Assembly (NCBI GenBank): GCA_028281235.1 | Contig: JANQKG010000024.1 | Coordinates: 64,569 to 128,568 of the forward strand | Origin: Afifellaceae bacterium | GTDB taxonomy: Bacteria > Pseudomonadota > Alphaproteobacteria > Rhizobiales > Afifellaceae | Reading direction: 5' to 3' | Length of the DNA stretch: 64,000 bases | Program-made: the position numbers and the translations under genes | Notes under the pieces: model-generated | Told to the model about the DNA's origin: nothing | What the model saw: only the letters and a program-made list of their open reading frames with translations | Database searches by the model: none | Shown: one piece after another, positions 32,229 through 54,698 of the stretch | Position numbering within the stretch: the stretch's first letter is position 1 | Layout of the letters: each line of letters starts with the position of its first letter

Positions 32229-32564
32229 TGACCATCCCCGTCTGCTTCACGCCGCCGCCATGCCCGGGCCGGCCGGCATATGATTGAACGTCGCGCCCTC
32301 GCGCTCCCCGCTCGCAGGAGCGGGCCCCGCAGCGCGTCTCGCCTCGCCGCGACACCGCCCTTTCGCGGTCGGCGACACGATAGCCGCATAGCCGCCCCTG
32401 GAGCAACACATGGCATCGTGAACGCCGGAAAGCCCGGTTTCCGGGGCGCGACAGAGGCCAGTCCGACGGCCGGGCACGGCTTCCTTGTGGACAGGTCCGC
32501 GGCGAGCTTATATAAACCGCGCGCTTTGTCGGGGCTGCCCTTTGTCCAGCGTCCGGGGAAGACA

Positions 32565-32640
<76 letters not shown>

Positions 32641-32750
32641 TTTCTCTCAATAAATTCAGTGTATTGTGCGGCCGGTTGATTTTTGAAGGCGGCCGAATTA
32701 CCCTTACACAATCGTTGCACAATTTCACACTTCAACGGCGGTCGTGGCGC

Positions 32751-33902
32751 ATGGCGGAGAAGCACACGATCCTTGGCGGCAAAATTCACGTCTACAAGCG
32801 GCCAGGCAGCCACGTCTGGCAGTGCTCGACCTACCTTGCCGGCAAGAACCGACGGGTTACGACGAAGGAAGAGAGCCTGAAGCGGGCGAAGGACTTCGCC
32901 GAGGATTGGTATCTAGGTCTCCGAGGCAAACAGAGCCGGGGCGAGGTCGTCGGAGAGAAAACGTTCGCGCAGGCGGCGGAAAAATTCACCGAGGAATACG
33001 AGGTGATGACCGGCGGCGAGCGCAACGCGAAATACGTCCAGGATCACCAAGCCCGACTGAGAAACCACCTCATTCCCTACTTCGGGAGGATGGGGCTGTC
33101 GCAGATCAAGACCGGCACGGTTCAGGAATACCGCATGCACAGACTCGATGGCGAGGACGACAGTCGCCGGCCATCTCGAAGCACGCTCCACCATGAGATC
33201 GTTACGTTGCGCCAGGTTCTGAAAACTGCGGCGCGTCATGGCTGGCTTGAGCATCTGCCAGACATATCGGAACCCTATCGGGCGTCAGCGAAGATCAGTC
33301 ATCGGGCGTGGTTTTCACCCGAGGAATATCGACAGCTCTACGGCGCGACGCGCGAGAACGTGAAGCAGTCCAAAGGCCGGCCGTGGCGATGGGCTGCTGA
33401 ACAGCTCCACGATTATGTGCTGTTCATGGCCAACACGGGCATTCGCCCCGACGAGGCGAATGGGCTTCAATACCGTGATGTTTCCATCGTTGACGACGAT
33501 GCGACCGGCGAGACAATTCTTGAGGTAGAGGTGCGCGGGAAGCGCGGCGTTGGCTTCTGCAAGAGCACGACTGGTGCCGTTCGGCCTTTCCAGCGGCTCA
33601 CGAAGCGAAACAAACCACAACCGAGCGACCTTGTCTTCCCCGCAAACCACAAACGGCAGTTCAACCGCCTACTCGACGAGCTTGGCCTGAAGCTCGATCG
33701 CGACGGCAATCGAAGGACGGCCTACAGCCTAAGGCACACATACATTTGCCTGCGCCTCATGGAGGGCGCGGACATCTATCAGATCGCCAAGAACTGCCGC
33801 ACGAGCGTTGAGATGATCGAGAAATACTACGCCTCCCATATCCGCACCAATCTCGATGCCGCGGCGATCAACGTGCGGCGGAAAGGCAAGAGCGCGGCTT
33901 AG
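32751..33902 (+). CDS. Tyrosine-type site-specific integrase
   Basis: MAEKHTILGGKIHVYKRPGSHVWQ... The catalytic region has ANTGIRPDEA, AYSLRHTYICLRL and VEMIEKYYASH. ORF 32280..33902 reads through the tRNA, so ATG 32751 is used. Confidence 0.9.
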   Translation: MAEKHTILGGKIHVYKRPGSHVWQCSTYLAGKNRRVTTKEESLKRAKDFAEDWYLGLRGKQSRGEVVGEKTFAQAAEKFTEEYEVMTGGERNAKYVQDHQARLRNHLIPYFGRMGLSQIKTGTVQEYRMHRLDGEDDSRRPSRSTLHHEIVTLRQVLKTAARHGWLEHLPDISEPYRASAKISHRAWFSPEEYRQLYGATRENVKQSKGRPWRWAAEQLHDYVLFMANTGIRPDEANGLQYRDVSIVDDDATGETILEVEVRGKRGVGFCKSTTGAVRPFQRLTKRNKPQPSDLVFPANHKRQFNRLLDELGLKLDRDGNRRTAYSLRHTYICLRLMEGADIYQIAKNCRTSVEMIEKYYASHIRTNLDAAAINVRRKGKSAA

Positions 33903-34461: not shown

Positions 34462-35124
34462 TTACTCGTGGTGCACGGACGAGTTATCCCCTTCCCGGCC
34501 GCTTTGTCGGCCGCGCGGCGCTTGCAGCGATAGGATGTCCTGCAGCTTGCCGATGAGGAAATTCGTTTCGCGATCGCGTTCCAGCATGCCCGCGATCTGA
34601 TCGTCCTTGACGCGAATCTGCCGGTCTTTTTCCTCGATCTGGTTCTTGAGGAACCCGATCATCTCGTTGGAAGTTTCGTCGGTGCGCACAGGTAGGGACG
34701 GGTGCGAACCTGTAGGGACATGTTCAGCCGGCGAATTGTCAGGCAATTCGGTCTCCGCACCTGTCCGCACGTGTAGGGACAGGTCGGCACCTGTGCCTAC
34801 AGATTCGACCTCTTGATCCTCGGGCAGGGCTTCGGCCCTGCGTGCCTCGAGTTCCTTCTCCTGAGCAATTTTCACGTCGAGGGAAGTGCGTTCGATCAAC
34901 CACCGGAAGCCGTTTTCAGTGTCCTGATGGCGAACCTTCACTTCGCCTTGGCCGTCGGCCTTGCGGGCGAGCTGTGCCCAGCGGCGCACGGTCTTCTGCG
35001 TCCGGCTCAGACCGAGTTCCCGGCAATAGGCGACAGCCTCTTTGACCGTGAGCCATGGTGCGAACCCGTCCGGACCTGTGCGCACAGGTAGGGATGGGCT
35101 CGGAGCCTCGTTCTGGGTTTCCAT
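34462..35124 (-). CDS. HTH (excisionase/MerR-like) plus coiled-coil protein containing PVRTG peptide repeats
   Basis: The ORF runs to 35454. The likely start is METQNEAP at 35124. It has LTVKEAVAYCRELGLSRTQKTVRRWAQ and a C-terminal coiled coil. It lies 18 nt upstream of the wHTH gene. Confidence 0.6.
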   Translation of the reverse strand: METQNEAPSPSLPVRTGPDGFAPWLTVKEAVAYCRELGLSRTQKTVRRWAQLARKADGQGEVKVRHQDTENGFRWLIERTSLDVKIAQEKELEARRAEALPEDQEVESVGTGADLSLHVRTGAETELPDNSPAEHVPTGSHPSLPVRTDETSNEMIGFLKNQIEEKDRQIRVKDDQIAGMLERDRETNFLIGKLQDILSLQAPRGRQSGREGDNSSVHHE

Positions 35125-35476
35125 ATGCCCAATCGTACCACGGAGGGCCCGGAGTATGCAGAAGCGTGTGGAGGGCCAGAGCCCGCTAAAACTGATGTTG
35201 AGCTCAAATAGGAACGAGGCTGCCCGGGCAGCCTCTGTTGCTTGGTGGGGAAGTGCAAACACTTGACCTTCGCCCGGCGCGCCGCTTTCCCTGCACTGAG
35301 TGCTTTCCCTGCCGCACCTTGCGCCTACGGCTGGCGACATACTACCCTTGGTGTAGCGCCAGCAAGGGCGCCGCAAATGCCAGGAGGAAGTAGAGGATGG
35401 CGTTACAACAAAACGGCCATCGCTTTGCAACGCAAGCGAGCTCCAAACGCGCATTCATCCGCTCTGAGTCAGATCA

Positions 35477-37270
35477 ATGAGTTCCAGCTCCTTAAAGAAG
35501 ATTAAGGACCCAATCCACGGATACGTCTACTACTCCGCTCTTGAGGAGGCTTTTATGAGCCACCCCCTCCTCCTGCGGCTGCACCACGTGCGCCAAAACG
35601 GCGGCGCTTTCCTAACATACCCCAGCATGCGGGTTCATCGCTTCGAGCATTCCGTTGGAGCAATGCACATAGCCGGCCACCTTTTCTTGTTCGGCACGCG
35701 CTTTTCGCCGGACGCCGAGCTCCACGATGCGTACAAGTCAATCTTGGCAAAGATTTTTCCAGACCTATCCATCGACGATCTGCGTACCGCCATCCTCAAG
35801 GCTGACAACCAGCAACGCGAGACAGGCCTCTCAAGGCTTCAGACAGATGGCTTGTACCGACTCCATGACCTCATTGATATCGACGACGACGCGATTTTTG
35901 CGGAGTTGCTCTTCTTCCAGGCAGTCCGACTTGCAACGCTAATGCATGATATCGGCCATCCGCCATTCTCACATACGTTTGAGACCGCGTTGAAGCAGCT
36001 GGAAAAAGACCGATACCGAGATCACGAGACAGTTGGAATAGATTTGCTAAACTACTTAAGCCACGATCTAAAAAACTACACAGATGAAGTTATATATTAT
36101 CTTGGTCGCACCGTGATATCAATTGCAAAGGTAATATTTGATGGCGAGCACGAGCTCCATAAATACGTTCAGGGTCTTTCTGACATCGTCTCCAGCGATA
36201 TCGACGCCGACCGCCTCGATTATGTCAGGCGCGATGCATCGGCCGCCGGACTCACCACAAATGCCTATGATCTCGGTCGGCTGTACGATGCTGTAAAATT
36301 GATATCAAACCCCAGCGGAGCTGTTGAATTGCAATGGACCGCCGCTGCACTCAGCACGATAGAAGCTTTCTTTAGCGTCCGCTTTCATCTTTATCGCTGG
36401 GCGCTATGGCATCACCATGTTGTTCGGCAGAATATGGCGTTAATTCTGGTTACGAGGCTTCTTTGGTCGCTGTTGCGCAAGAACAATGAAACTCTTGGCC
36501 CATTACATCTAGACCTCATAGAGCTGGTCCGCATAAGCAGAAACCCCTCAAGGATAGGCGATTACTGGTATTTCACTGACTATTATTTACTTGATAATTA
36601 TGCTAAAATACTCAGCGCGCTAGATAAGGATGAGATGAAGTGGATTGGAAAAGACGAGAACTGGGGTGAACTGGCCGATCTTTATAAATTCTTGCGCACA
36701 TTCTTATATCGAGAAAAGAAGTGGCTTTCACCTTTTTGGAAACGGCCTGACGACTACGTGATTTTCTCTAACCAGGTTATAGAGCAAGAAAGTGACGATA
36801 GTGCTGTACAGTTTAACGATATGCTAGGCAAGGCGTATCAAAGATTGGTCGCCGAAGACGCAAATGAAGCAGAAGGGAGCCCAGAAGCAGCGGCTCATGG
36901 GGACAAATACGATGACTACCTCAGCTTCCGCTTTTGCGAGCGGTTGGAGCATGCAATCAACGCTTCGTTGAAGCCGCATGGCTGTAGGTGCCGAGCGTAT
37001 TATCTCGCGAAATTCAAGCCGGCCCCAACGAAGCTTCAGCTTCTCGGTCGAGACGACGAACCAATGGCGTTGGGCACGCTTTCGCCCTCGGTGGCAGCGT
37101 TGAGCGAGGCTTGGAGAGCGTTGCCGCACCTTTGGCTCTTTTTAGAGTACAAGGCTTTTGGGGACAACGGGGAAACACTAAACCCTGACGTTGTGCGCCA
37201 ACGTGTCAAGCCGGTAGGAGTCTACTCAGTTGTCGCCGAGTCGCTTCGAAACTGCCTACTAAACGGATAG
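35477..37270 (+). CDS. SAMHD1/dGTPase-type HD-domain (d)NTP triphosphohydrolase-like protein with a long C-terminal extension
   Basis: IKDPIHGYVYY...LLRLHHVRQNG...RVHRFEHSVG (His), LMHDIGHPPFSH (HD) and DADRLDYVRRD (Asp), in the order typical of COG1078/SAMHD1-like enzymes. 597 aa; AT-rich. Confidence 0.85.
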   Translation: MSSSSLKKIKDPIHGYVYYSALEEAFMSHPLLLRLHHVRQNGGAFLTYPSMRVHRFEHSVGAMHIAGHLFLFGTRFSPDAELHDAYKSILAKIFPDLSIDDLRTAILKADNQQRETGLSRLQTDGLYRLHDLIDIDDDAIFAELLFFQAVRLATLMHDIGHPPFSHTFETALKQLEKDRYRDHETVGIDLLNYLSHDLKNYTDEVIYYLGRTVISIAKVIFDGEHELHKYVQGLSDIVSSDIDADRLDYVRRDASAAGLTTNAYDLGRLYDAVKLISNPSGAVELQWTAAALSTIEAFFSVRFHLYRWALWHHHVVRQNMALILVTRLLWSLLRKNNETLGPLHLDLIELVRISRNPSRIGDYWYFTDYYLLDNYAKILSALDKDEMKWIGKDENWGELADLYKFLRTFLYREKKWLSPFWKRPDDYVIFSNQVIEQESDDSAVQFNDMLGKAYQRLVAEDANEAEGSPEAAAHGDKYDDYLSFRFCERLEHAINASLKPHGCRCRAYYLAKFKPAPTKLQLLGRDDEPMALGTLSPSVAALSEAWRALPHLWLFLEYKAFGDNGETLNPDVVRQRVKPVGVYSVVAESLRNCLLNG

Positions 37271-37284
37271 GCGAAATCCAAAAC

Positions 37285-38379
37285 ATGATCACTATCGTCG
37301 TCGGCGCACAGTACGGGGGAGAGGGGAAGGGAAAGGTCTCTGCTTTCCTCGCCTCAGCTCAGCGATTTGATATTGCGTGTCGCTGCGGTGGCCCGAATTC
37401 GTCGCACACAGCGGTGCACAAGGGTAGAGAATTCAAACTCAGGATGATGCCGACCGCGGCTATTGTCGACCCATGGGTCTCCGTTGTGTTCGCGGCTGGG
37501 ACTCTTTTGCACGTTCCAACGCTTTTCGACGAAATCCGTTTGATAGGCTTTCGAGGAAACCTTCTTATTTCGCCATATGCCGGCATTATTACCGATGAAA
37601 CTGTTGCTAAACAGCGCTCTGACAATCGGTATGAGGCAATCGGCTCAACGCTGACCGGTACAGGGTATGCTGCTGCAGACAGATGTTTGCGTAAGCTGCC
37701 CCTTGCAAGGGAATTCTCAGAACTGAGTCCTTACTTATTTGACGTCCATGAGTTTTTGTTTGCGTCTATCAAGAACAGTCGAAATATTCTTATTGAAGGT
37801 CACCAGGGTTTCGGTCTCTCGAATTATCATGGCGACTATCCGTATGTTAGCAGCCGCGATTCAACGGCGGCAGCTATGCTTTCTGAGCTAGGCGTCGGAC
37901 CTCTTCAGAAGACCATACAGGTTGTGCTTGTAGCAAAGATTTTCCCGACCCGGAACCACCGCGGTGCACTCGGAGAGGAGCTCACGGAGGAGGAGGCCTC
38001 TGCGATGGGAATCCGTGAATATGGGGGCGGTTCATGGGGAATACCGAATCGCAGGCGACGGGTCGGCATCTTCGACTTCGAGCTCGTTAGGCGTGCAGCG
38101 GCCGCAAACTCGGCGACATGCATCGCACTGACCGGTGCTGACTATCTCGACAAAGCGCTCGCGGGCCAGCAAATCGCGACTCAAAACGAGCATTTGGATC
38201 AGTTCGTTTGTGCTCTTGAGAAGACAATCTCGCCGACACCAGTAAGGTTCGTCTCAACGGGGCGTGACACCTCCCACATGTTTGAACTAAAGCCCGCCAG
38301 CTCGAAGAAGCCAAAGCGGCCCAGACGAGTCAAGCGACCCGAGAATGTCCGTGATCTGTTCGAAGGGGGGCTACACTAG
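37285..38379 (+). CDS. Divergent short adenylosuccinate-synthetase-family (PurA/PurZ-like) protein
   Basis: IVVGAQYGGEGKGK (compare PurA GTQWGDEGKGK), GGPNSSHT (NAGHT), IGSTLTGTGYAAADR (GTTGRGIGPAYEDK), IEGHQGFGLS (EGAQG), GDYPYVSSRDST (GTYPYVTSS), NRRRRVG (GRRRRTGW), STGRDT (STGPDR). 364 aa; starts 14 nt after the HD gene. Confidence 0.8.
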   Translation: MITIVVGAQYGGEGKGKVSAFLASAQRFDIACRCGGPNSSHTAVHKGREFKLRMMPTAAIVDPWVSVVFAAGTLLHVPTLFDEIRLIGFRGNLLISPYAGIITDETVAKQRSDNRYEAIGSTLTGTGYAAADRCLRKLPLAREFSELSPYLFDVHEFLFASIKNSRNILIEGHQGFGLSNYHGDYPYVSSRDSTAAAMLSELGVGPLQKTIQVVLVAKIFPTRNHRGALGEELTEEEASAMGIREYGGGSWGIPNRRRRVGIFDFELVRRAAAANSATCIALTGADYLDKALAGQQIATQNEHLDQFVCALEKTISPTPVRFVSTGRDTSHMFELKPASSKKPKRPRRVKRPENVRDLFEGGLH

Positions 38380-46817: not shown

Positions 46818-47888
46818 ATGTCTTCCCATCGTATTGACTTCAAACATGTCCGCGACCACGCTTCGATTGAAACCGTGCTCGCGGCGTATGGGATCACCTT
46901 GCAGAAGGACGGCGGTAGGTCGGGACAACACAAGTGCCTTTGCCCCTTCCACGAAGATCACAAACCGTCGATGAAGGTCAACACCGACCGGAACATCTAT
47001 CACTGCTTTGTCTGCGACGAGGGCGGCAACGTTCTCGATCTGGTGATGCAGCTAGAGGGAGTGGATATTCGCGCGGCGGCTAAACAGGTCGCAGAGACTT
47101 GTGGAATCGGCACGTCGGCGACATCGCCGCGTAAACAGCGGAGCCAAAAGGGCTTCAAAGGCTCGGGCTCTGCTGCGGGTGGAGAGCGTGGCAGTGCCAA
47201 GCAAGGTCGCAATCAGCGAAACAAAGCCGGAAACGCCGAACACAAGTCGACTTCCGACGAGAGTGCTGGCCGAGCAGATGAGAAGCAATGCAACGAGCCA
47301 CTGACGTTCGAACTGAAGAACCTGATCACCGATCATCCGTTTATAGCTGAGCGCGGTGTCTCGGAAGAGATGCAGGCAGAGTTCGGAATCGGTGTCGCGA
47401 CACGCGGGATCATGAAAGGCCGTCTGGTCTTCCCTATCCACAACGCGAAGGGCGAGCTTGTCGCTTATTGCGGCCGGCACATCGGCGACGAACCGCTGAA
47501 GGACGAGCCGAAATACAAGCTTCCGCCGAACTTTCGAAAGGAACTGGAGCTGTTCAACTGGCATCGAGTTAAAGACCTCGCCACCAAGCGCCCGCTCGTG
47601 ATCGTGGAGAGCTACTTCTCGGTCGTGAAGCTGCATGGAATGGAAGTGCCGTGCGTCTCACCGATGGGTCGAACGCTGTCGGGCATGCAATTCGACCTTC
47701 TCGAAGAGGCCGGCATCAAGCATGTCGTTCTATTGTTCGACGGCGACGATCCCGGACGCGCCGCGACCACCACAGCTGGCCGGCAGCTCCTGGCTGCGAA
47801 CATAAGCGTCACTGCACCCGTCGTTCCTGAAGGCTTTAAGCCACACGGCACGGGTGTGGAGGAACTTCGAACTTTGCTGAGCTGCTAG
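46818..47888 (+). CDS. DNA primase (CHC2 zinc finger plus Toprim)
   Basis: CLCPFHEDHKPSMKVNTDRNIYHCFVCDEGGNVLDLV (CHC2) and the Toprim block VIVESYF...VVLLFDGDDPGRAA. AGGAG lies upstream. Confidence 0.85.
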   Translation: MSSHRIDFKHVRDHASIETVLAAYGITLQKDGGRSGQHKCLCPFHEDHKPSMKVNTDRNIYHCFVCDEGGNVLDLVMQLEGVDIRAAAKQVAETCGIGTSATSPRKQRSQKGFKGSGSAAGGERGSAKQGRNQRNKAGNAEHKSTSDESAGRADEKQCNEPLTFELKNLITDHPFIAERGVSEEMQAEFGIGVATRGIMKGRLVFPIHNAKGELVAYCGRHIGDEPLKDEPKYKLPPNFRKELELFNWHRVKDLATKRPLVIVESYFSVVKLHGMEVPCVSPMGRTLSGMQFDLLEEAGIKHVVLLFDGDDPGRAATTTAGRQLLAANISVTAPVVPEGFKPHGTGVEELRTLLSC

Positions 47889-47895
47889 AAGAGCC

Positions 47896-47933
47896 GGACC
47901 GTCATCCTCAGGGATGGCGGTCCTTCATTCTTC
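47896..47933. terminator. Hairpin between convergent genes (candidate bidirectional terminator)
   Basis: GGACCGTCATCC-TCAG-GGATGGCGGTCC: a 12-bp stem with one G-U pair, followed by TTCATTCTTC. It lies between the primase stop and the stop of the 1263-aa gene. Confidence 0.5.
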
Positions 47934-48010: not shown

Positions 48011-51000
48011 TCACGGGTGCCATCGCTCGCCGACAGCGGCACTTTCGTCATGCCTTCGCGCTTCTCGCTCGTAACCCTCCGCAATCGAAATTAGCATGGC
48101 GGAAACTCTCGGATGTGAACTGCGGTATCGTTCCGCAAGTTCGCGATAGCGCCTCTCGAGGCTCCTCTCCTGATCACCTCCGTCATACGGCCCTCGAGAG
48201 GTGACGCCGCGTGCATTGTAGACGCCTACATCGAAACGCCGACGAAGCTCTCCATTTTCTGGTCTATCCAGAAAATCCAACACGCTTACGGGCAGCCACT
48301 CATTCCATGAGCGTCGGCGCGCTAAACGAGCCAATAGGGCTCCCAAGTGTCTCTCAGCGGCTTCCCTCCGATCCACTTGCGCTGCACGACTCAGTGCATC
48401 TTCCGCCCATGAGGTAAATGCACGCTCATCGACATCTCCATCCTCTAGCTGACCTGGAACCTCGCTCCAGCCTTCCAGCGTGTGATACGCGAGCTCTGCA
48501 AGAAACTCTCTCTGATCAGCTGGGACTCCCTCGTCTTCGGGATCATCTGCCCCGTCCCTACGCCGGTAGTGCCAACAAATCAGTTGGACAAATAGCGCTG
48601 GGTCTCTTGCCAGCTCTCGGTGAATGGCGAGCGTCCGTTCGTGACTGCGATGTCCATGCGCACAAAGCAAAGGAATGAAAGGCAATTCCAGATTGGCGAC
48701 TTGATCTTGAGAAACATCATCTGCGCTATCGAGGCACTTGAACACTTCGTCGAGGTGATATGCGGAGGGTAAAGGGCCGTCGGGCTCCTGACCGATCGCA
48801 ACTGCCTTTAGAATGCGAACCCATTGTTCTGTGGGTAAACGGTCAGGCCATATTTCTATTGCGGCGAATGCTGATCGTGGCCGCTGATGCTCAAGCAGCT
48901 TGTTGATCGCATACGCTATATGTTGGCCGGGCGTATCATTCCAAAGACGGATGGTAACCGACTTCCAAAAAACAGATACAATATCATCGCCAAGAGCTTC
49001 GGCAGCTGCCCATCCGACATCCGTCCCAGGAAGATGTTTCGCGATACGCTGTCTGTTTCCCTGCGTCTCCAACAGGCCCTGATCAGTGAGTCTTAAGCTG
49101 ACGGCGTTCAAAACACTTGACCCCGCGTTCCAAAGCACCTGGCGGAGGAAGGCGTCTGCGGCTTCGCTCGGTTCTTCAAGTAGAGCAATACGTGCCCATC
49201 TGGTAACCGTTTCAACCGAAGCATCTGGAGGCACCAAGACCCGCGCAACCAGGTCGGGCTGCTTCACGCTCAGCGCAAAGGAGAAAGCTGCTTCATCTCC
49301 CGATCGGTCCTGGATTTCGACTATCGCCTGCCTACGTCGCTCCTCAAAGAGAGCGTGTTTCTCTTCCCACGACAGTTGCTCTTCAGTTTCCCCTTCCGCG
49401 AGGGCTTGCCATTCTATAAACGCGTTTTCAAATAACCATTTATGCCGTGCCGCCGGATCGTCTGGTTCAAGAGCGGCCTCCATTCGACGAAGCCCATCAG
49501 CCAGTTCCTTGTCTTCGGAACCTTCTTGATAGGCATCTGCAACAGAGCGACGGCGGAGATTGTGCCGCAGGTCAGCCTTGTCTTCGTCATCAGCATCGGC
49601 TGCCCAGCGTTCCACTTCATTCACCAAACGCCTCAGGTCATCGGGGTGCAGACGTGTTGAGACTTCCAGGAGCTTGTCCAGTTCGGTCTTATCGAAGGGC
49701 AGCAAATCCAGTAGCAGTCGACTTGCCCCGATTGCAGCTTCCCGCACGTCTTTGTTCGTCGGTTCTGGAACGTTCGCTTCTAGCGGCAACCACTGTGGTG
49801 TGGCGGTCTTTGATGCGAACTGGGGAAACCCGCCCGGAAGCAGAGAGATACACACATCAATAGCTGGCCCCCGATGATCCTCCGAGAGATCGCGTAACAC
49901 CGCCATCTTTTTTGGCACGCTGAGAGACGTAGCAGGAAGCCAGGCAAGGAATAGGGATCGCGCCGTTGCTTCCGGCGAGTTTGACCAGTTGTCGTCGACT
50001 TCAAGCCTACGGAGTCCGAAAACGATACCGGCAACGCGAGAGAATCGCGAAGAGTCCCATGCAAGCAGCTCAAGTGCCCAGAGTAGATTTGTTCTTAAGC
50101 ACTCACCGCCTACTCCGCCACCGGTCGTGCCCATTATCGCGCGAATGGCCGGCTCTGGCTTGCTAAGCTCGTCCTCAAGGCAATCGAGGAATGCATTCGG
50201 GGACGCCTCGGCAAGTGCGCGCAGATGAGCACGAATGGTCAACCATCGGTCTTCGTCGGCGTCCTGCATAAGGGACTGGACAACTTGTCCGGCGCGATAT
50301 GCACAATCCAAATCCAGTCGAGACCCGCAAATCTCCTTGCCGTGGATGGCGAGAATGCAAAGAGCATCGCCAAGGCCGGAGAGGATCGCATGCGAGCAAC
50401 TACGCTCTTTTTCGAGAACGCTCGCCATCCACCATTGGTCTTGAGGCAAATCCAGCGCTGGATCACGGTCCCCCAACAGCTCTGGAACCAGCTGAAAGAA
50501 GCGATCCAAGTCATCTATTTCAATGAAGGGGCCAATCGAAAACAACGCATCCAATTGGGAAACAACAACGTTGACGTTGCCGTACCTAGCGATCGGGGCG
50601 TCATTCATCGCTACCAAACTATCGCGAACGGATAAGACTTCTCCGCTGCTCAGTTCGCCGATTAGTTGAAGCACCGTTTCATCGTCGTACTTCTTCCTTT
50701 CGATCCATGATCCAGCCAAAGCAAATGGTAACAGGCGTTTCGCAGATGCGTGGTCCATTGCCCAAACTGGCCTTCGGACCTCAGGATCAGGTGAGAGACG
50801 ACGACGTAGAACCGGTAGGGAGTGGCCCGTCTCTCGCGCGAGCCTCCTTGCGTCGTCCTCGGCGAAACCCGCTGCCTCCAACTCAGTGCGAAGTATCTTG
50901 GATGGGACGTGCGACAGCTGAATCGAATCTCGGATATCGACCCTCCCCCTTGAGTATGGCCGTATGAGCGTCAGATTCCTCCTGTCCCCAAAGCTCGGCT

Positions 51001-51802
51001 CTTCCCCTTCAGGCAGGTCGGGGATGACAATCAATCGAGACGTTGTCGAGGGAACTTGAATGCTGCTTGATGTGACGACAAGTGTCCGATCTAAGAGATC
51101 AATCGCATCATTCTGGACCAATGTAGCGGCTGCGAATGCGACGGCCTCCCCACGGTCATCTGCCTGAATAGGGACAACAGATTCGTCCTTGCGAAGTTTG
51201 CTTATCAACGCATTCGCTTCGCCGTGCTTACGAGCCACCACCATGGCCATTGAAATTGGTGGAGTCGAAGCGGTAGACCATTGCGTCCACCATTCCTGTG
51301 GTGTCAGAAGCCCGGGCGCCGCGATTCCAAGTAGCTCACCCAGCCAGCGTGAAGTGGCCGGAGCTTCTTCGAGCCAAGTTTCAAGGTCGATCGCATCGTA
51401 GGCAAGGACCGATCGCCAGGTCCCTTCCTGGCGGCGCTCCGCCAGCCAGTCGTCCTTGTTGTTCCAGCGTCTTGGCGTGACGAAAACAAAACTGCTTCTC
51501 GCAAGTTCGCTAGACGGCGCATTGCTAGTTCGCTTGGCGTAGTCGCTATCAGCTTTTCCGCCAGGGCGCTGGTCGCATCCCATCTCCCACACGCTGCGGC
51601 CTTGAGGAACCCACGTGGTCTGGCTATCCGCATCAACTTGCCCGTCGAGCCCAGCCAAATCGACCGCTTCGTTGCCCGGGAAGCGAAGCGATATCAAAGA
51701 CGGAGTGGTCTCGCGCACCAATCGGCGGATTAAGATGGGGAGATATCGTCGACATTCGTGCCGATCTGCCCATTGCCGGATCGTCGTCTCGTCGACGTGC
51801 AT
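48011..51802 (-). CDS. Very large (1263 aa) orphan protein, mostly helical-repeat-like, with no P-loop
   Basis: Single uninterrupted ORF. N-terminus MHVDETTIRQWADRHECRRYLPILIRRLVRE...GLDGQVDAD...SVWEMGCDQRPGGKADSDYAKR...FVFVTPRRW. I found no GxxxxGK[ST] motif and recognised no family. Confidence 0.75.
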   Translation of the reverse strand: MHVDETTIRQWADRHECRRYLPILIRRLVRETTPSLISLRFPGNEAVDLAGLDGQVDADSQTTWVPQGRSVWEMGCDQRPGGKADSDYAKRTSNAPSSELARSSFVFVTPRRWNNKDDWLAERRQEGTWRSVLAYDAIDLETWLEEAPATSRWLGELLGIAAPGLLTPQEWWTQWSTASTPPISMAMVVARKHGEANALISKLRKDESVVPIQADDRGEAVAFAAATLVQNDAIDLLDRTLVVTSSSIQVPSTTSRLIVIPDLPEGEEPSFGDRRNLTLIRPYSRGRVDIRDSIQLSHVPSKILRTELEAAGFAEDDARRLARETGHSLPVLRRRLSPDPEVRRPVWAMDHASAKRLLPFALAGSWIERKKYDDETVLQLIGELSSGEVLSVRDSLVAMNDAPIARYGNVNVVVSQLDALFSIGPFIEIDDLDRFFQLVPELLGDRDPALDLPQDQWWMASVLEKERSCSHAILSGLGDALCILAIHGKEICGSRLDLDCAYRAGQVVQSLMQDADEDRWLTIRAHLRALAEASPNAFLDCLEDELSKPEPAIRAIMGTTGGGVGGECLRTNLLWALELLAWDSSRFSRVAGIVFGLRRLEVDDNWSNSPEATARSLFLAWLPATSLSVPKKMAVLRDLSEDHRGPAIDVCISLLPGGFPQFASKTATPQWLPLEANVPEPTNKDVREAAIGASRLLLDLLPFDKTELDKLLEVSTRLHPDDLRRLVNEVERWAADADDEDKADLRHNLRRRSVADAYQEGSEDKELADGLRRMEAALEPDDPAARHKWLFENAFIEWQALAEGETEEQLSWEEKHALFEERRRQAIVEIQDRSGDEAAFSFALSVKQPDLVARVLVPPDASVETVTRWARIALLEEPSEAADAFLRQVLWNAGSSVLNAVSLRLTDQGLLETQGNRQRIAKHLPGTDVGWAAAEALGDDIVSVFWKSVTIRLWNDTPGQHIAYAINKLLEHQRPRSAFAAIEIWPDRLPTEQWVRILKAVAIGQEPDGPLPSAYHLDEVFKCLDSADDVSQDQVANLELPFIPLLCAHGHRSHERTLAIHRELARDPALFVQLICWHYRRRDGADDPEDEGVPADQREFLAELAYHTLEGWSEVPGQLEDGDVDERAFTSWAEDALSRAAQVDRREAAERHLGALLARLARRRSWNEWLPVSVLDFLDRPENGELRRRFDVGVYNARGVTSRGPYDGGDQERSLERRYRELAERYRSSHPRVSAMLISIAEGYEREARRHDESAAVGERWHP

Positions 51803-52576: not shown

Positions 52577-52580
52577 CTTG

Positions 52581-52841
52581 ATGGCTCAAAGGCGATTAAA
52601 CCTGAACGTGTCATCAGACTCGTATGAGCATCTGAGGCATCTGGCGGAGATCACAGGAGAGTCGATCTCTGAGACAGTCCGAGAAGCCCTGCGCCATTAT
52701 CACCGCCTCGTGCACATCAAGGCTCGCGGGAACCGGATTTACGAAGAGCAGAGCGGGGCGCTCCATGAGGTGCCGCTAGACTTTCAGGTTGACTCCGACC
52801 AGATCAGCGATCCGTTCGCGCAGGTGCCGAAGTTCGATTGA
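52581..52841 (+). CDS. Ribbon-helix-helix (CopG/Arc-like) protein
   Basis: RRLNLNVSSDSYEHLRHLAEITGESISETVREALRHY fits a beta-strand plus two helices. The ORF opens at TTG 52578. Confidence 0.65.
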   Translation: MAQRRLNLNVSSDSYEHLRHLAEITGESISETVREALRHYHRLVHIKARGNRIYEEQSGALHEVPLDFQVDSDQISDPFAQVPKFD

Positions 52842-52935
52842 GTGATTTTGACGAGCTCCGGAGCGCAGTCGCCATCTAAGGCGATGTCCACGAAGGATTC
52901 GGCAGAAGCCAGCATTGCAGGCAGAGGCTCGATCA

Positions 52936-53964
52936 ATGACACCGGACTTCTCGCGCGCCGTGGTAGAGGTGCTTGGCAAACGGGCCGCTTATTACTGTTC
53001 GAATCCGGACTGCCGGGCACTTACGACCGGGCCGACAACAAATCCGGGCAAAGCAACAGTGGTTGGAGAGGCCGCCCACATCTGTGGCGCAAGGGAAAAG
53101 ACGGCGCGATTCCAACCTGACATGACGGACGGCGCGCGCGCCGAGATCACAAACGGCATTTGGCTATGCCGGACTTGTCATAAACTGGTTGACGACGATG
53201 AGCGTCGGTTTTCGGCTGAACTGCTATTCGAGTGGAGACGGCTCCATGAAGCCTATATCATCTCACGTGTCGGAAGCGCCGCTGACAAGATCGCCAGCGA
53301 CCTTGCGGAAAGGCAGCTAGACCAGTTCTCGGAGACAACGCCGCTGGCGCGGCGGATCATCTGCGATCGCCCTCGCGGATGGGAGTATCGGCTAACCGCC
53401 GAGTTCTTACGTCAACACACGAAAGCACCCCTCCGGCGATGGGATGATCTTTCTGAAGGCCTCTACACCCTGCCAATGATGAGGTTGGATGAAGAATCGG
53501 TCATGCCGTGGTTCCAAGCCAAGCTCAGTGAGGCGCCCCAACTGGCTAAAACGCTCGCCAAGCTGCATGCCGATGCAATTGTGGCCGCATGGGGCGAGCC
53601 GGGACAGCCCGGCGATCCCGCCGAGATACAGCACGTTTGTCAGATGATCGGTTCCGCGGTGATCCGGCTATTGCAGTGGGAAGAGGAGGTGCGCTTCGCC
53701 TATGCACCGGAGCCTTTCGATAGTCTCGTGGCCTGCCTGCCTGGAGCGCTTGGTCTCAATCTCGACAAATTGCATGAGCTGCCACGAATGCTTGATACAG
53801 CGGTAGACTGGCTTGAGTCGAACGAAGGGAGGCCTCCGCCGAAGACACCCAAGGAGTTCCGATTCGATCTTGTGTTCGACCTGCCGGAAGGCTGGAACGA
53901 TCGTATCAACCAAGAGTTGGATAGAATCGCTGAGGGCAATCGTTGGCGAACAGACATTCTGTGA
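52936..53964 (+). CDS. HNH-nuclease-motif protein with an uncharacterised ~230-aa C-terminal domain
   Basis: YYCSNPDC...GEAAHICGA...ITNGIWLCRTCHKLVD (Cys pair, His, Asn, CxxCH). The ORF opens at TTG 52915; first ATG is 52936. Confidence 0.7.
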   Translation: MTPDFSRAVVEVLGKRAAYYCSNPDCRALTTGPTTNPGKATVVGEAAHICGAREKTARFQPDMTDGARAEITNGIWLCRTCHKLVDDDERRFSAELLFEWRRLHEAYIISRVGSAADKIASDLAERQLDQFSETTPLARRIICDRPRGWEYRLTAEFLRQHTKAPLRRWDDLSEGLYTLPMMRLDEESVMPWFQAKLSEAPQLAKTLAKLHADAIVAAWGEPGQPGDPAEIQHVCQMIGSAVIRLLQWEEEVRFAYAPEPFDSLVACLPGALGLNLDKLHELPRMLDTAVDWLESNEGRPPPKTPKEFRFDLVFDLPEGWNDRINQELDRIAEGNRWRTDIL

Positions 53965-54652
53965 ATCGTTCGAGCATCGCTGCACCCAGGCAGAACCCGC
54001 GGACGGGCTTTGCCCGCTCCCCTTCTCGCTTGTCAAAGCGCGCATCGTTTCGATGCGCAAACGTTCCCCCGTGTTGTCGTGCCCGACGGAACCGACAGAA
54101 CGCCGCGAGCGAAGGGAGCGGGTTTCTGTCGATCGTGCAGTCGCGCGCTCGACCCCCTACGCCCTGGCGCAGGATGCGAGACTCGTCAGAGCCGCAGACA
54201 AGCCCGAGCCGCGGCGCGCTCTCCCTCCACAGGCGTTAGCCTGGGAGAGACGCCGCAAGCGACGCCCGACTATGAAAACACCAGCCTTGTTCAAGATGGT
54301 TGTTTTCAAGGAGGGAGAGCGTAGGGGGTCGAGCGCAGCGAAGACAACACGGGGGAACCATTTGTCGCGTGTTCACAGTGCATTGGCACTCACGCGACAA
54401 CGCTCTGCCCGGTCACTTCTAGAACTGACCGGGCAACCAGCCCCCTAGCCTTACCACGGCTTGGGCGGCTGAAGCTGAGCCCCTAGCATTTGCTAGAGGA
54501 ACCGAAGCGCCGCTGGGCTTGGAAAGACGGCGCCGAAACACCCGAAAAATGGCCGGCTTTGGCCGCCGAAACTTACACATTTTCTTACACACTCACAAAA
54601 CACGCTTCCATTTATTCTATTAATATCAGTTAGTTATAATATCGCACCACGC

Positions 54653-54698
54653 ACTGAAAATCCGCGTGTCGGTGGTTCGATTCCGCCCCTGGGCACCA
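54653..54698 (+). repeat. attR core (duplicated 3' tRNA-Phe fragment)
   Basis: 46/46 identity with 32595-32640. The preceding sequence does not complete a tRNA. Confidence 0.9.

Follow-up and report, generated by a model that had tools for sequence, protein, structure and literature searches.

A distant relative of Avs8 with a replaced nucleotide site: a probable stand-alone immune receptor on a mobile island of an Afifellaceae bacterium

Results and discussion

We analysed a stretch of 64,000 nucleotides (in the following, the window) from an Afifellaceae bacterium (GenBank assembly GCA_028281235.1, contig JANQKG010000024.1, positions 64,569 to 128,568 of the forward strand). At 48011..51802 on the minus strand it contains a gene for a protein of 1263 amino acids (aa), in which a predicted nuclease domain, a NOD-like module without nucleotide-binding motifs (pseudo-NOD) and a large solenoid follow each other. 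With a probability of roughly 0.7, we consider this gene to encode a stand-alone, NLR-like pattern-recognition receptor that acts against phages (or against mobile elements) and belongs to a family distantly related to Avs8. An initial annotation, made from the sequence alone, had already likened the protein to STAND/Avs-type immune proteins with an effector and a repeat sensor. This overall inference is supported by the structural matches to Avs3, Avs5 and Avs4 and by the profile homology to Avs8A that are described below. The gene is complete according to the list of open reading frames (ORFs), the translation and the full-length alignment with homologues of equal length; its stop codon lies at 48011-48013. 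The single uninterrupted ORF reported in the initial annotation was confirmed, and the N-terminal sequence strings cited there are found in the translation.

Domain architecture

Two AlphaFold2 models were used, covering residues 1-350 and 341-1263 and each calculated from an alignment of 66 sequences. The model of residues 1-350 (pLDDT 93.3, pTM 0.89) comprises two alpha/beta domains, one at residues 1 to ~180 and the other at ~190-295, and a helical bundle. In the model of residues 341-1263 (pLDDT 89.4), a helix-helix-hairpin unit (~363-415) that looks like a typical winged helix precedes about 45 helices arranged as a solenoid. When residues 1-350 were compared with the PDB by Foldseek, the top matches were Avs3 (8dgc; E 6e-6, probability 0.99), the AVAST5 filament (9nc9) and Avs4 (8dgf). 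These were followed by the AAA+ proteins NSF and ClpC, and then by FokI (probability 0.93), EcoT38I (0.85) and Cap4. The C-terminal model matched CAND1, importin-beta, SF3B1 and CRM1, all of which are HEAT/ARM solenoids, with probabilities of about 1.0. A search of the viral structures in BFVD yielded no homologue at E ≤ 0.001; the matches there, to viral restriction endonucleases (probability 0.98-0.99) and to subunits of replication factor C (RFC), were at the level of the fold only.

Residues 1-180 (51263..51802, minus strand, as for all parts of this gene) would thus form an effector domain with a restriction-endonuclease fold of the PD-(D/E)xK-like kind. Such an N-terminal effector had been suggested before, and the matches to FokI, EcoT38I and Cap4 support it, together with the AlphaFold2 model, the column frequencies and the hhalign alignment discussed below. 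Residues 190-295 (50918..51235) are assigned by Foldseek to a P-loop-NTPase-like alpha/beta domain, which lacks Walker A and B and is therefore called a pseudo nucleotide-binding domain (pseudo-NBD) here. The helical domain (HD) and the winged-helix domain (WHD) that follow at residues 296-415 (50558..50917) were delimited from the secondary structure of both models, conservation and hhalign, and complete an NBD-HD-WHD (NOD-like) module; in the helical domain, G326, S328 and L332-R333-R334 are invariant. Residues 416-1263 (48014..50557) are modelled as a HEAT/ARM-like alpha-solenoid, also according to Foldseek, and presumably represent the ligand sensor. The earlier description of the C-terminus as helical-repeat-like proved correct: the models and the fold search give an all-helical solenoid of about 850 aa.

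As judged from the models, the succession of effector, NBD-HD-WHD and repeat sensor corresponds to the tripartite plan of Avs/NLR-type receptors. The protein had been described as Avs-type minus the ATPase. The layout and the structural matches to Avs proteins bear out the first part of this description. The second part has to be modified, since the ATPase fold is still there and its motifs have been replaced rather than being absent.

Relationship to Avs8

Avs8 is the system also called PD-lambda-4. Its protein Avs8A, of which EcAvs8A (WP_000963924.1) is an example (Vassallo 2022; PMC12236752; PMC13581612), consists of an Mrr-type nuclease, a STAND P-loop domain and a repeat sensor; it binds major capsid proteins of the HK97 fold and then degrades double-stranded DNA (PMC12236752; PMC13581612). 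The DNase activity of EcAvs8A requires Mg2+ and ATP, and the second protein, Avs8B, is dispensable (PMC12236752).

A link to this system emerged from the relatives of the 1263-aa protein. The PADLOC profile PD-Lambda-4_A was matched by 15 of the 26 sequences in the family alignment, each of which was scanned separately. These matches are local, with a length of ~110-130 residues, and they are always colinear: residues ~528-661 of the protein fall on positions 558-683 of the 1,283 positions of the hidden Markov model (HMM). The best scores were E 2.6e-9 and 3.6e-10. One member with a fused helix-turn-helix (HTH) domain showed a further colinear match of residues 230-275 to HMM positions 149-193.

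A genuine Avs8A was located via a weak tblastn match of the conserved sensor segment on plasmids. This protein, WP_147021480.1 from plasmid pMRAD07 of Methylobacterium radiotolerans, has 1,266 aa and matches PD-Lambda-4_A over its full length with E 2.9e-274. We aligned 27 homologues of the Methylobacterium protein and compared this alignment to the family alignment by hhalign, which yielded a probability of 96.05%, an E-value of 3.7e-9 and 728 aligned columns. The alignment is colinear throughout: it starts at the first helix of the nuclease domain, passes the NOD and ends near residue 815. Even against a single Avs8A sequence, the sensor segment was aligned with E 3.7e-5. From hhalign and the PADLOC matches in relatives, the part of the sensor with detectable Avs8A homology can be placed at residues ~493-790 (49433..50326), which include the motifs LLWALELLAW and DDNW.

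The two families are alike in length (1263 versus about 1266-1283 aa) and in the order of their parts, namely a restriction-fold nuclease, NBD-HD-WHD and a helical-repeat sensor. The nuclease aspartate D53 is aligned in both, and the family, like Avs8A with its dispensable partner Avs8B, seems to work as a single gene. They differ in the Walker A motif, which is GLSGVGKT in Avs8A and is replaced here by a motif of the type ADDRGEAV, and in Walker B, which has been lost here. The nuclease motif reads D...Q-x-K in Avs8A, but D...E-x-G plus K83 in the family under study. Moreover, most members of the family carry an N-terminal HTH of the XRE type, and none was seen in the Avs8A set. In sequence, the family is thus distantly related to Avs8, and the PADLOC profile does not place it in PD-lambda-4_A.

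The replaced nucleotide site

The absence of a Walker A motif, which had been pointed out before, was confirmed: the pattern [AG]xxxxGK[ST] does not occur anywhere in the 1263-aa protein. At the homologous position, Walker A is absent in all 274 proteins examined. Matches to a Walker A regular expression near residue 560 of relatives (AAxxYGKT) were dismissed as chance hits, as they are located in the solenoid and thus outside the NTPase-like domain.

In the alignment of 27 Avs8A sequences, L-V-G-L-S-G-V-G-K246-T247-R-L represents Walker A, and Walker B has the sequence I-L-V-I-D300-N-C. Here, hhalign sets A214-D-D-R-G-E219-A220-V221-A-F223 of the 1263-aa protein on G240...L249 of Avs8A, and the lysine and threonine of the P-loop therefore correspond to alanine and valine. 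The conserved acidic motif at the Walker A place (ADDRGEAVAF, residues 214-223; 51134..51163), which was delimited by hhalign and column frequencies, is located in the model at the junction between a strand (209-214) and a helix (217-230), which is the exact place of a P-loop. Throughout the family, the replacement motif has the form A-D-[S/D]-x-x-E-A-x-A-F. Its frequencies, determined like the others below in 271 sequences, are 85% for Ala214, 89% for Asp215, 98% for Glu219, 97% for Ala222 and 93% for Phe223; position 216 is Ser in 62% and Asp in 34%. The Walker B position, residue 262, is Asp in only 35%. The pseudo-NBD as a whole is the least conserved region, with a mean pairwise identity of 31% versus 48-50% in the nuclease, the helical domain and the first sensor segment.

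A functional P-loop in Avs proteins is recognised by Walker A together with Walker B, and this combination was not found in the 1263-aa protein. Because the defining P-loop was tested for and is absent, the protein does not count as a bona fide STAND NTPase, but it is clearly STAND-derived and related to Avs8. With its nucleotide site replaced, activation and assembly are presumably nucleotide-independent. It may be speculated that the acidic D215 and E219 form pairs with two arginines of the helical lid, R333 and R334, and thereby take the place of a bound nucleotide; the Avs8A region aligned to this lid reads G-G-N-A-R. A more far-reaching idea, which we regard as tentative and rather doubtful, is that the family represents a very large, unrecognised NLR-like clade that works wholly without nucleotides. 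D215/E219 and R333/R334 would then mimic the nucleotide, activation would be driven purely by the ligand, and the XRE HTH of most members would tie the receptor to DNA or to the promoter of its own gene. Should this hold, the family would offer a natural experiment on the need of the NOD immune switch for nucleotide exchange. The family-wide replacement of the P-loop by another conserved motif, with nuclease and sensor under selection, bears on the question of whether nucleotide binding or hydrolysis is needed for ligand-induced assembly.

Putative nuclease residues

In the nuclease domain, D53 (96%), E73 (96%), K83 (97%) and D87 (95%) are near-invariant. The hhalign comparison pairs D53 with D53 of Avs8A, E73 with Q76 and G75 with K78. 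As the Avs8A lysine is thus aligned with a glycine, its function would have to fall to K83, located in the next helix 10 residues downstream of E73. The predicted catalysis would then rest on K83 having taken over the role of Avs8A K78.

Family size, distribution and genomic contexts

The initial annotation had regarded the protein as an orphan. This turned out to be wrong, even though the 1263-aa protein itself gives no usable match in Pfam (only DUF4404, E 0.06), NCBIfam, PADLOC or the PDB sequences, and a profile of the family finds among the PDB sequences only insignificant, single-TPR-like matches to kinesin light chain (residues 1214-1250). In a protein database clustered at 90%, we found 264 homologues at E ≤ 1e-3, mostly full length (~1,260 aa) and with identities from 67% down to ~30%. 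A profile of residues 1-350 was searched against 1.84 billion representatives of clusters at 50% identity and found 3,973 clusters at E ≤ 0.001 (of which the best 150 matches were listed) and 2,391 at E ≤ 1e-30. A scan of one genome per species showed that at least 597 species carry a relative. The hosts belong to the Alpha-, Beta- and Gammaproteobacteria, Bacteroidota, Chloroflexota, Acidobacteriota, Gemmatimonadota, Planctomycetota, Cyanobacteria, Nitrospirota and Bacillota. This patchy spread over more than 10 phyla is consistent with horizontal transfer.

In the databases, relatives are named only "hypothetical protein", "XRE family transcriptional regulator" or "HigA family (addiction module) antidote". 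The majority of the members have ~1,350 aa and carry an additional N-terminal HTH_3 domain (PF01381) of ~95 residues. The 1263-aa protein belongs to a clade without this domain, and a Pfam scan of the protein found no HTH. Neither Pfam nor NCBIfam nor PADLOC has a model for this family, which comprises some 4,000 clusters at 50% identity. The link to Avs8 supplies this family with a testable function and a candidate class of ligands, and a profile derived from the family would allow defence-finding tools to catch genes that are now overlooked.

To describe the neighbourhoods, 79 loci were considered, and the ORFs lying up to 3 kb away from the gene were compared all against all. No neighbour was common to more than five of the 79 loci, and none was found in a fixed position. 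The family is therefore a single-gene unit, as had been proposed for the gene of the window; in particular, no equivalent of Avs8B is conserved. The surroundings themselves vary. Relatives in Roseovarius and Ruegeria are located on mini-islands with an integrase and a resolvase, while others adjoin MmeI, Type ISP or type III restriction genes, HicB or TrwC. Further relatives were found among transposases, or beside PLD-SNF2 helicases together with an MNT-HEPN pair and an integrase, and a relative on a Rhizobium plasmid adjoins AbiE and restriction genes. Altogether, seven of the eight chromosomal or metagenomic contexts viewed, and also the island of the window, are mobile elements or neighbourhoods with restriction, toxin-antitoxin or other conflict-type genes. 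Of the 26 plasmid records with a relative, 18 are conjugative or mobilizable. Judged locus by locus, these mobile, restriction and Abi contexts fit a defence gene.

On two Rhizobium plasmids, R. gallicum pRgalIE4872c (locus L095, 6841-14801) and R. leguminosarum pPR4 (locus L096, 4904-12931), an HTH-fused member is followed by a second large gene on the same strand, the first ~710-770 residues of which resemble the nuclease and STAND parts of Avs8A. The two genes could form a pair of a pseudo-NOD and a real-NOD receptor, or they could be mere neighbours in a defence island; over the 79 loci, this pairing is not general.

Proposed mechanism and alternative explanations

By analogy with Avs3, Avs4, Avs7 and Avs8, the following mechanism can be proposed. 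The alpha-solenoid of ~850 residues would wrap around a conserved protein of the invader. Because the sensor shares a homologous N-terminal lobe with Avs8, an HK97-fold major capsid protein would be the leading candidate for this ligand. For the C-terminal half, kinship to Avs8 is not detectable, so that a different ligand is quite possible. Binding would free the central NBD-HD-WHD module from autoinhibition and let it oligomerise. The oligomer would gather the N-terminal PD-(D/E)xK-like domains, which might then cut DNA indiscriminately, abort the infection and possibly kill the cell. The analysis itself shows the architecture, the homology, which motifs are lost and which are conserved, the single-gene status and the contexts of mobile or defence type; ligand, oligomerisation, DNA cleavage and abortive infection are all inferred only from the systems named.

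Several observations weigh against an Avs-type receptor. The 1263-aa protein itself has no PADLOC match at E ≤ 1, and this includes the PD-Lambda-4_A profile. The similarity to Avs8A comes mostly from the N-terminal lobe of the sensor (residues ~490-800); aligned domain by domain, hhalign gives E 0.004 for the nuclease and 0.23 for the NOD, and the C-terminal half of the sensor alone is not significant. For residues 1-350, Foldseek gives low TM-scores (0.22-0.27), which is due to several domains being matched simultaneously. At the position of the canonical lysine of (D/E)xK there is a glycine (E73-M-G75). Finally, one close homologue, in a Brucella sp., stands alone amid sugar-utilisation genes.

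Some of the evidence could also be read differently. The restriction-endonuclease fold of the N-terminal domain, the winged helix, the XRE-type HTH of most members and the restriction-modification genes in several neighbourhoods would all suit a Type IV-like restriction nuclease that needs no ligand, in which solenoid and winged helix read DNA or its modifications and the N-terminal nuclease cuts foreign DNA. We think this improbable, as the whole architecture is colinear with Avs8A, for which sensing of a protein has been demonstrated, as the fold search matches HEAT-like solenoids of such a size to scaffolds that bind proteins, and as a conserved methyltransferase partner is not found in the 79 loci. 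The HTH is also central to the notion that the protein serves the maintenance or regulation of mobile elements. It would then stabilise the island instead of warding off phages, be it as a toxin of the addiction type that includes its own HigA/XRE antitoxin-like regulator, or as a transcriptional regulator of large size. Many copies are indeed located on islands and plasmids, the HTH_3 domain is present at the N-terminus of most members, and the database names "XRE family transcriptional regulator" and "HigA family addiction module antidote" point in this direction. However, these names derive solely from the HTH, which makes up ~95 of ~1,350 residues and is missing from the 1263-aa protein and its entire clade. 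A regulatory role would leave the conserved nuclease residues, the NOD fold and the homology to Avs8 unexplained, and no toxin partner is conserved in the 79 loci, which makes this explanation unlikely as well.

The protein might, on the other hand, be a decaying or non-enzymatic relic, that is, an inactive Avs remnant or a mere scaffold. The loss of Walker A and B, the low conservation of the pseudo-NBD and the exchange of the ExK lysine for glycine would be expected of such a remnant, but the ORF is intact over 1,263 aa, as it is in thousands of relatives from many phyla. In addition, D53, E73, K83, D87, the replacement motif and many sensor positions are 89-98% conserved, which indicates purifying selection and makes a relic very improbable. 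All three explanations are thus less well supported than that of an Avs-type receptor.

Comparison with other systems

Avs3 (SeAvs3, 8dgc), Avs4 (EcAvs4, 8dgf) and Avs5 (9nc9), the top structural matches to residues 1-350, share with the 1263-aa protein the layout of effector, NOD and sensor. They differ from it by their intact P-loops and by TPR-like sensors that recognise terminase or portal, the Avs5 effector is a SIR2 domain, and no similarity to the 1263-aa protein is detectable in their sequences. According to Gao et al. 2022, the nuclease effector of Avs3 and Avs4 is reportedly switched on by ligand-induced tetramerisation.

A precedent for degenerate ATPase motifs is KpAvs8 of Klebsiella pneumoniae, which is noted only in a figure legend of a Nature 2026 survey (PMC13581612, Extended Data Fig. 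11d): its Walker A and B motifs are degenerate, "suggesting a lack of ATPase activity". The 1263-aa protein resembles it in combining an Avs8-type sensor with degenerate ATPase motifs, a likeness that is drawn from the description and not from the sequence. No Klebsiella protein is found among the named relatives, including the relatives of the Pectobacterium member.

The sensor also occurs in another setting. On plasmid pSBAL11702 of Shewanella baltica OS117 (locus L007, 5116-8679), a protein of 1,187 aa aligns with residues 351-1250, i.e. with the winged helix and the sensor. Its N-terminus of ~295 residues is unrelated and contains no NTPase-like domain, and the gene adjoins Abi and superinfection-exclusion genes. 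The shared sensor behind an unrelated N-terminus thus shows that the sensor module is reused with other front ends. A parallel is Dsr1, a protein without a STAND domain that has the sensor of Avs7 (PMC13581612). In contrast to the Dsr1 type, the 1263-aa protein keeps the NOD fold and has lost only the nucleotide motifs.

A separate observation concerns the Avs8 type itself. The weak tblastn match on plasmids that led to the Methylobacterium Avs8A also led to a variant from Enterobacter. Plasmid pYK16-mcr-10 of Enterobacter roggenkampii encodes an Avs8-type protein of 1,373 aa (locus L013, 3895-8016; PD-Lambda-4_A E 1.9e-180 over residues 264-1359), the effector of which is a DUF676 serine-esterase-like domain in place of the nuclease. 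On this mcr-10 plasmid, the gene adjoins VapBC, and a HEPN nuclease gene is located ~4 kb upstream.

The mobile island and its other genes

The location of the gene in the cargo of an island, as initially annotated, was confirmed by a 49-nucleotide repeat of tRNA-Phe at both ends and by a lower GC content (~50-60% within the island versus ~65% in the flanks). The island has a length of 22 kb and spans 32565-54698 of the window. At its left boundary lies attL, the 3' end of the tRNA-Phe gene (32592..32640, plus strand); this gene, at 32565-32640, encodes the sole tRNA of the window and is followed by the integrase gene. The right boundary is formed by attR (54650..54698, plus strand), a direct repeat of these 49 nucleotides with 98% identity. 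Besides the integrase, the genes of the island encode a Replic_Relax (replication-relaxation) protein, a DnaG-type primase and two coupling-protein-like ATPases of the TraD/VirD4 kind, a set that makes it resemble an integrative mobilizable element.

The primase gene (46818-47888, plus strand), which encodes a CHC2 zinc finger and a Toprim domain, is convergent with the gene of the 1263-aa protein, and the hairpin that the initial annotation had seen between them was confirmed. It has a stem of 12 bp, is located between the two stop codons at 47896..47923 (no strand assigned) and is likely a terminator common to both genes. Upstream of the 1263-aa gene there is a ribbon-helix-helix gene (52578-52841), followed by a gene for an HNH protein of 349 aa (52915-53964). 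The latter matches the PADLOC candidate PDC-M68A (E 1e-24) and CBASS-type HNH effectors and is likely a second defence gene adjoining that of the 1263-aa protein.

Three further features of the island were observed. The listed integrase ORF (32280-33902) overruns the tRNA, and its real start must therefore be later. The lowest GC content of the window (~50%) is found at 35477-38379, where an HD-domain protein of 597 aa and an adenylosuccinate-synthetase-like protein of 364 aa are encoded side by side. The HD protein has a weak match to a PADLOC defence dGTPase (E 2e-6, HD motif only), and the pair may be a cargo module that manipulates nucleotides. A 21-nucleotide repeat, GTGCGCACAGGTAGGGACGGG, occurs in four copies with 76-100% identity at 34682-35098, inside or beside an unannotated ORF of 330 aa (34462-35454, minus strand), and could represent iterons of the island or protein-binding sites.

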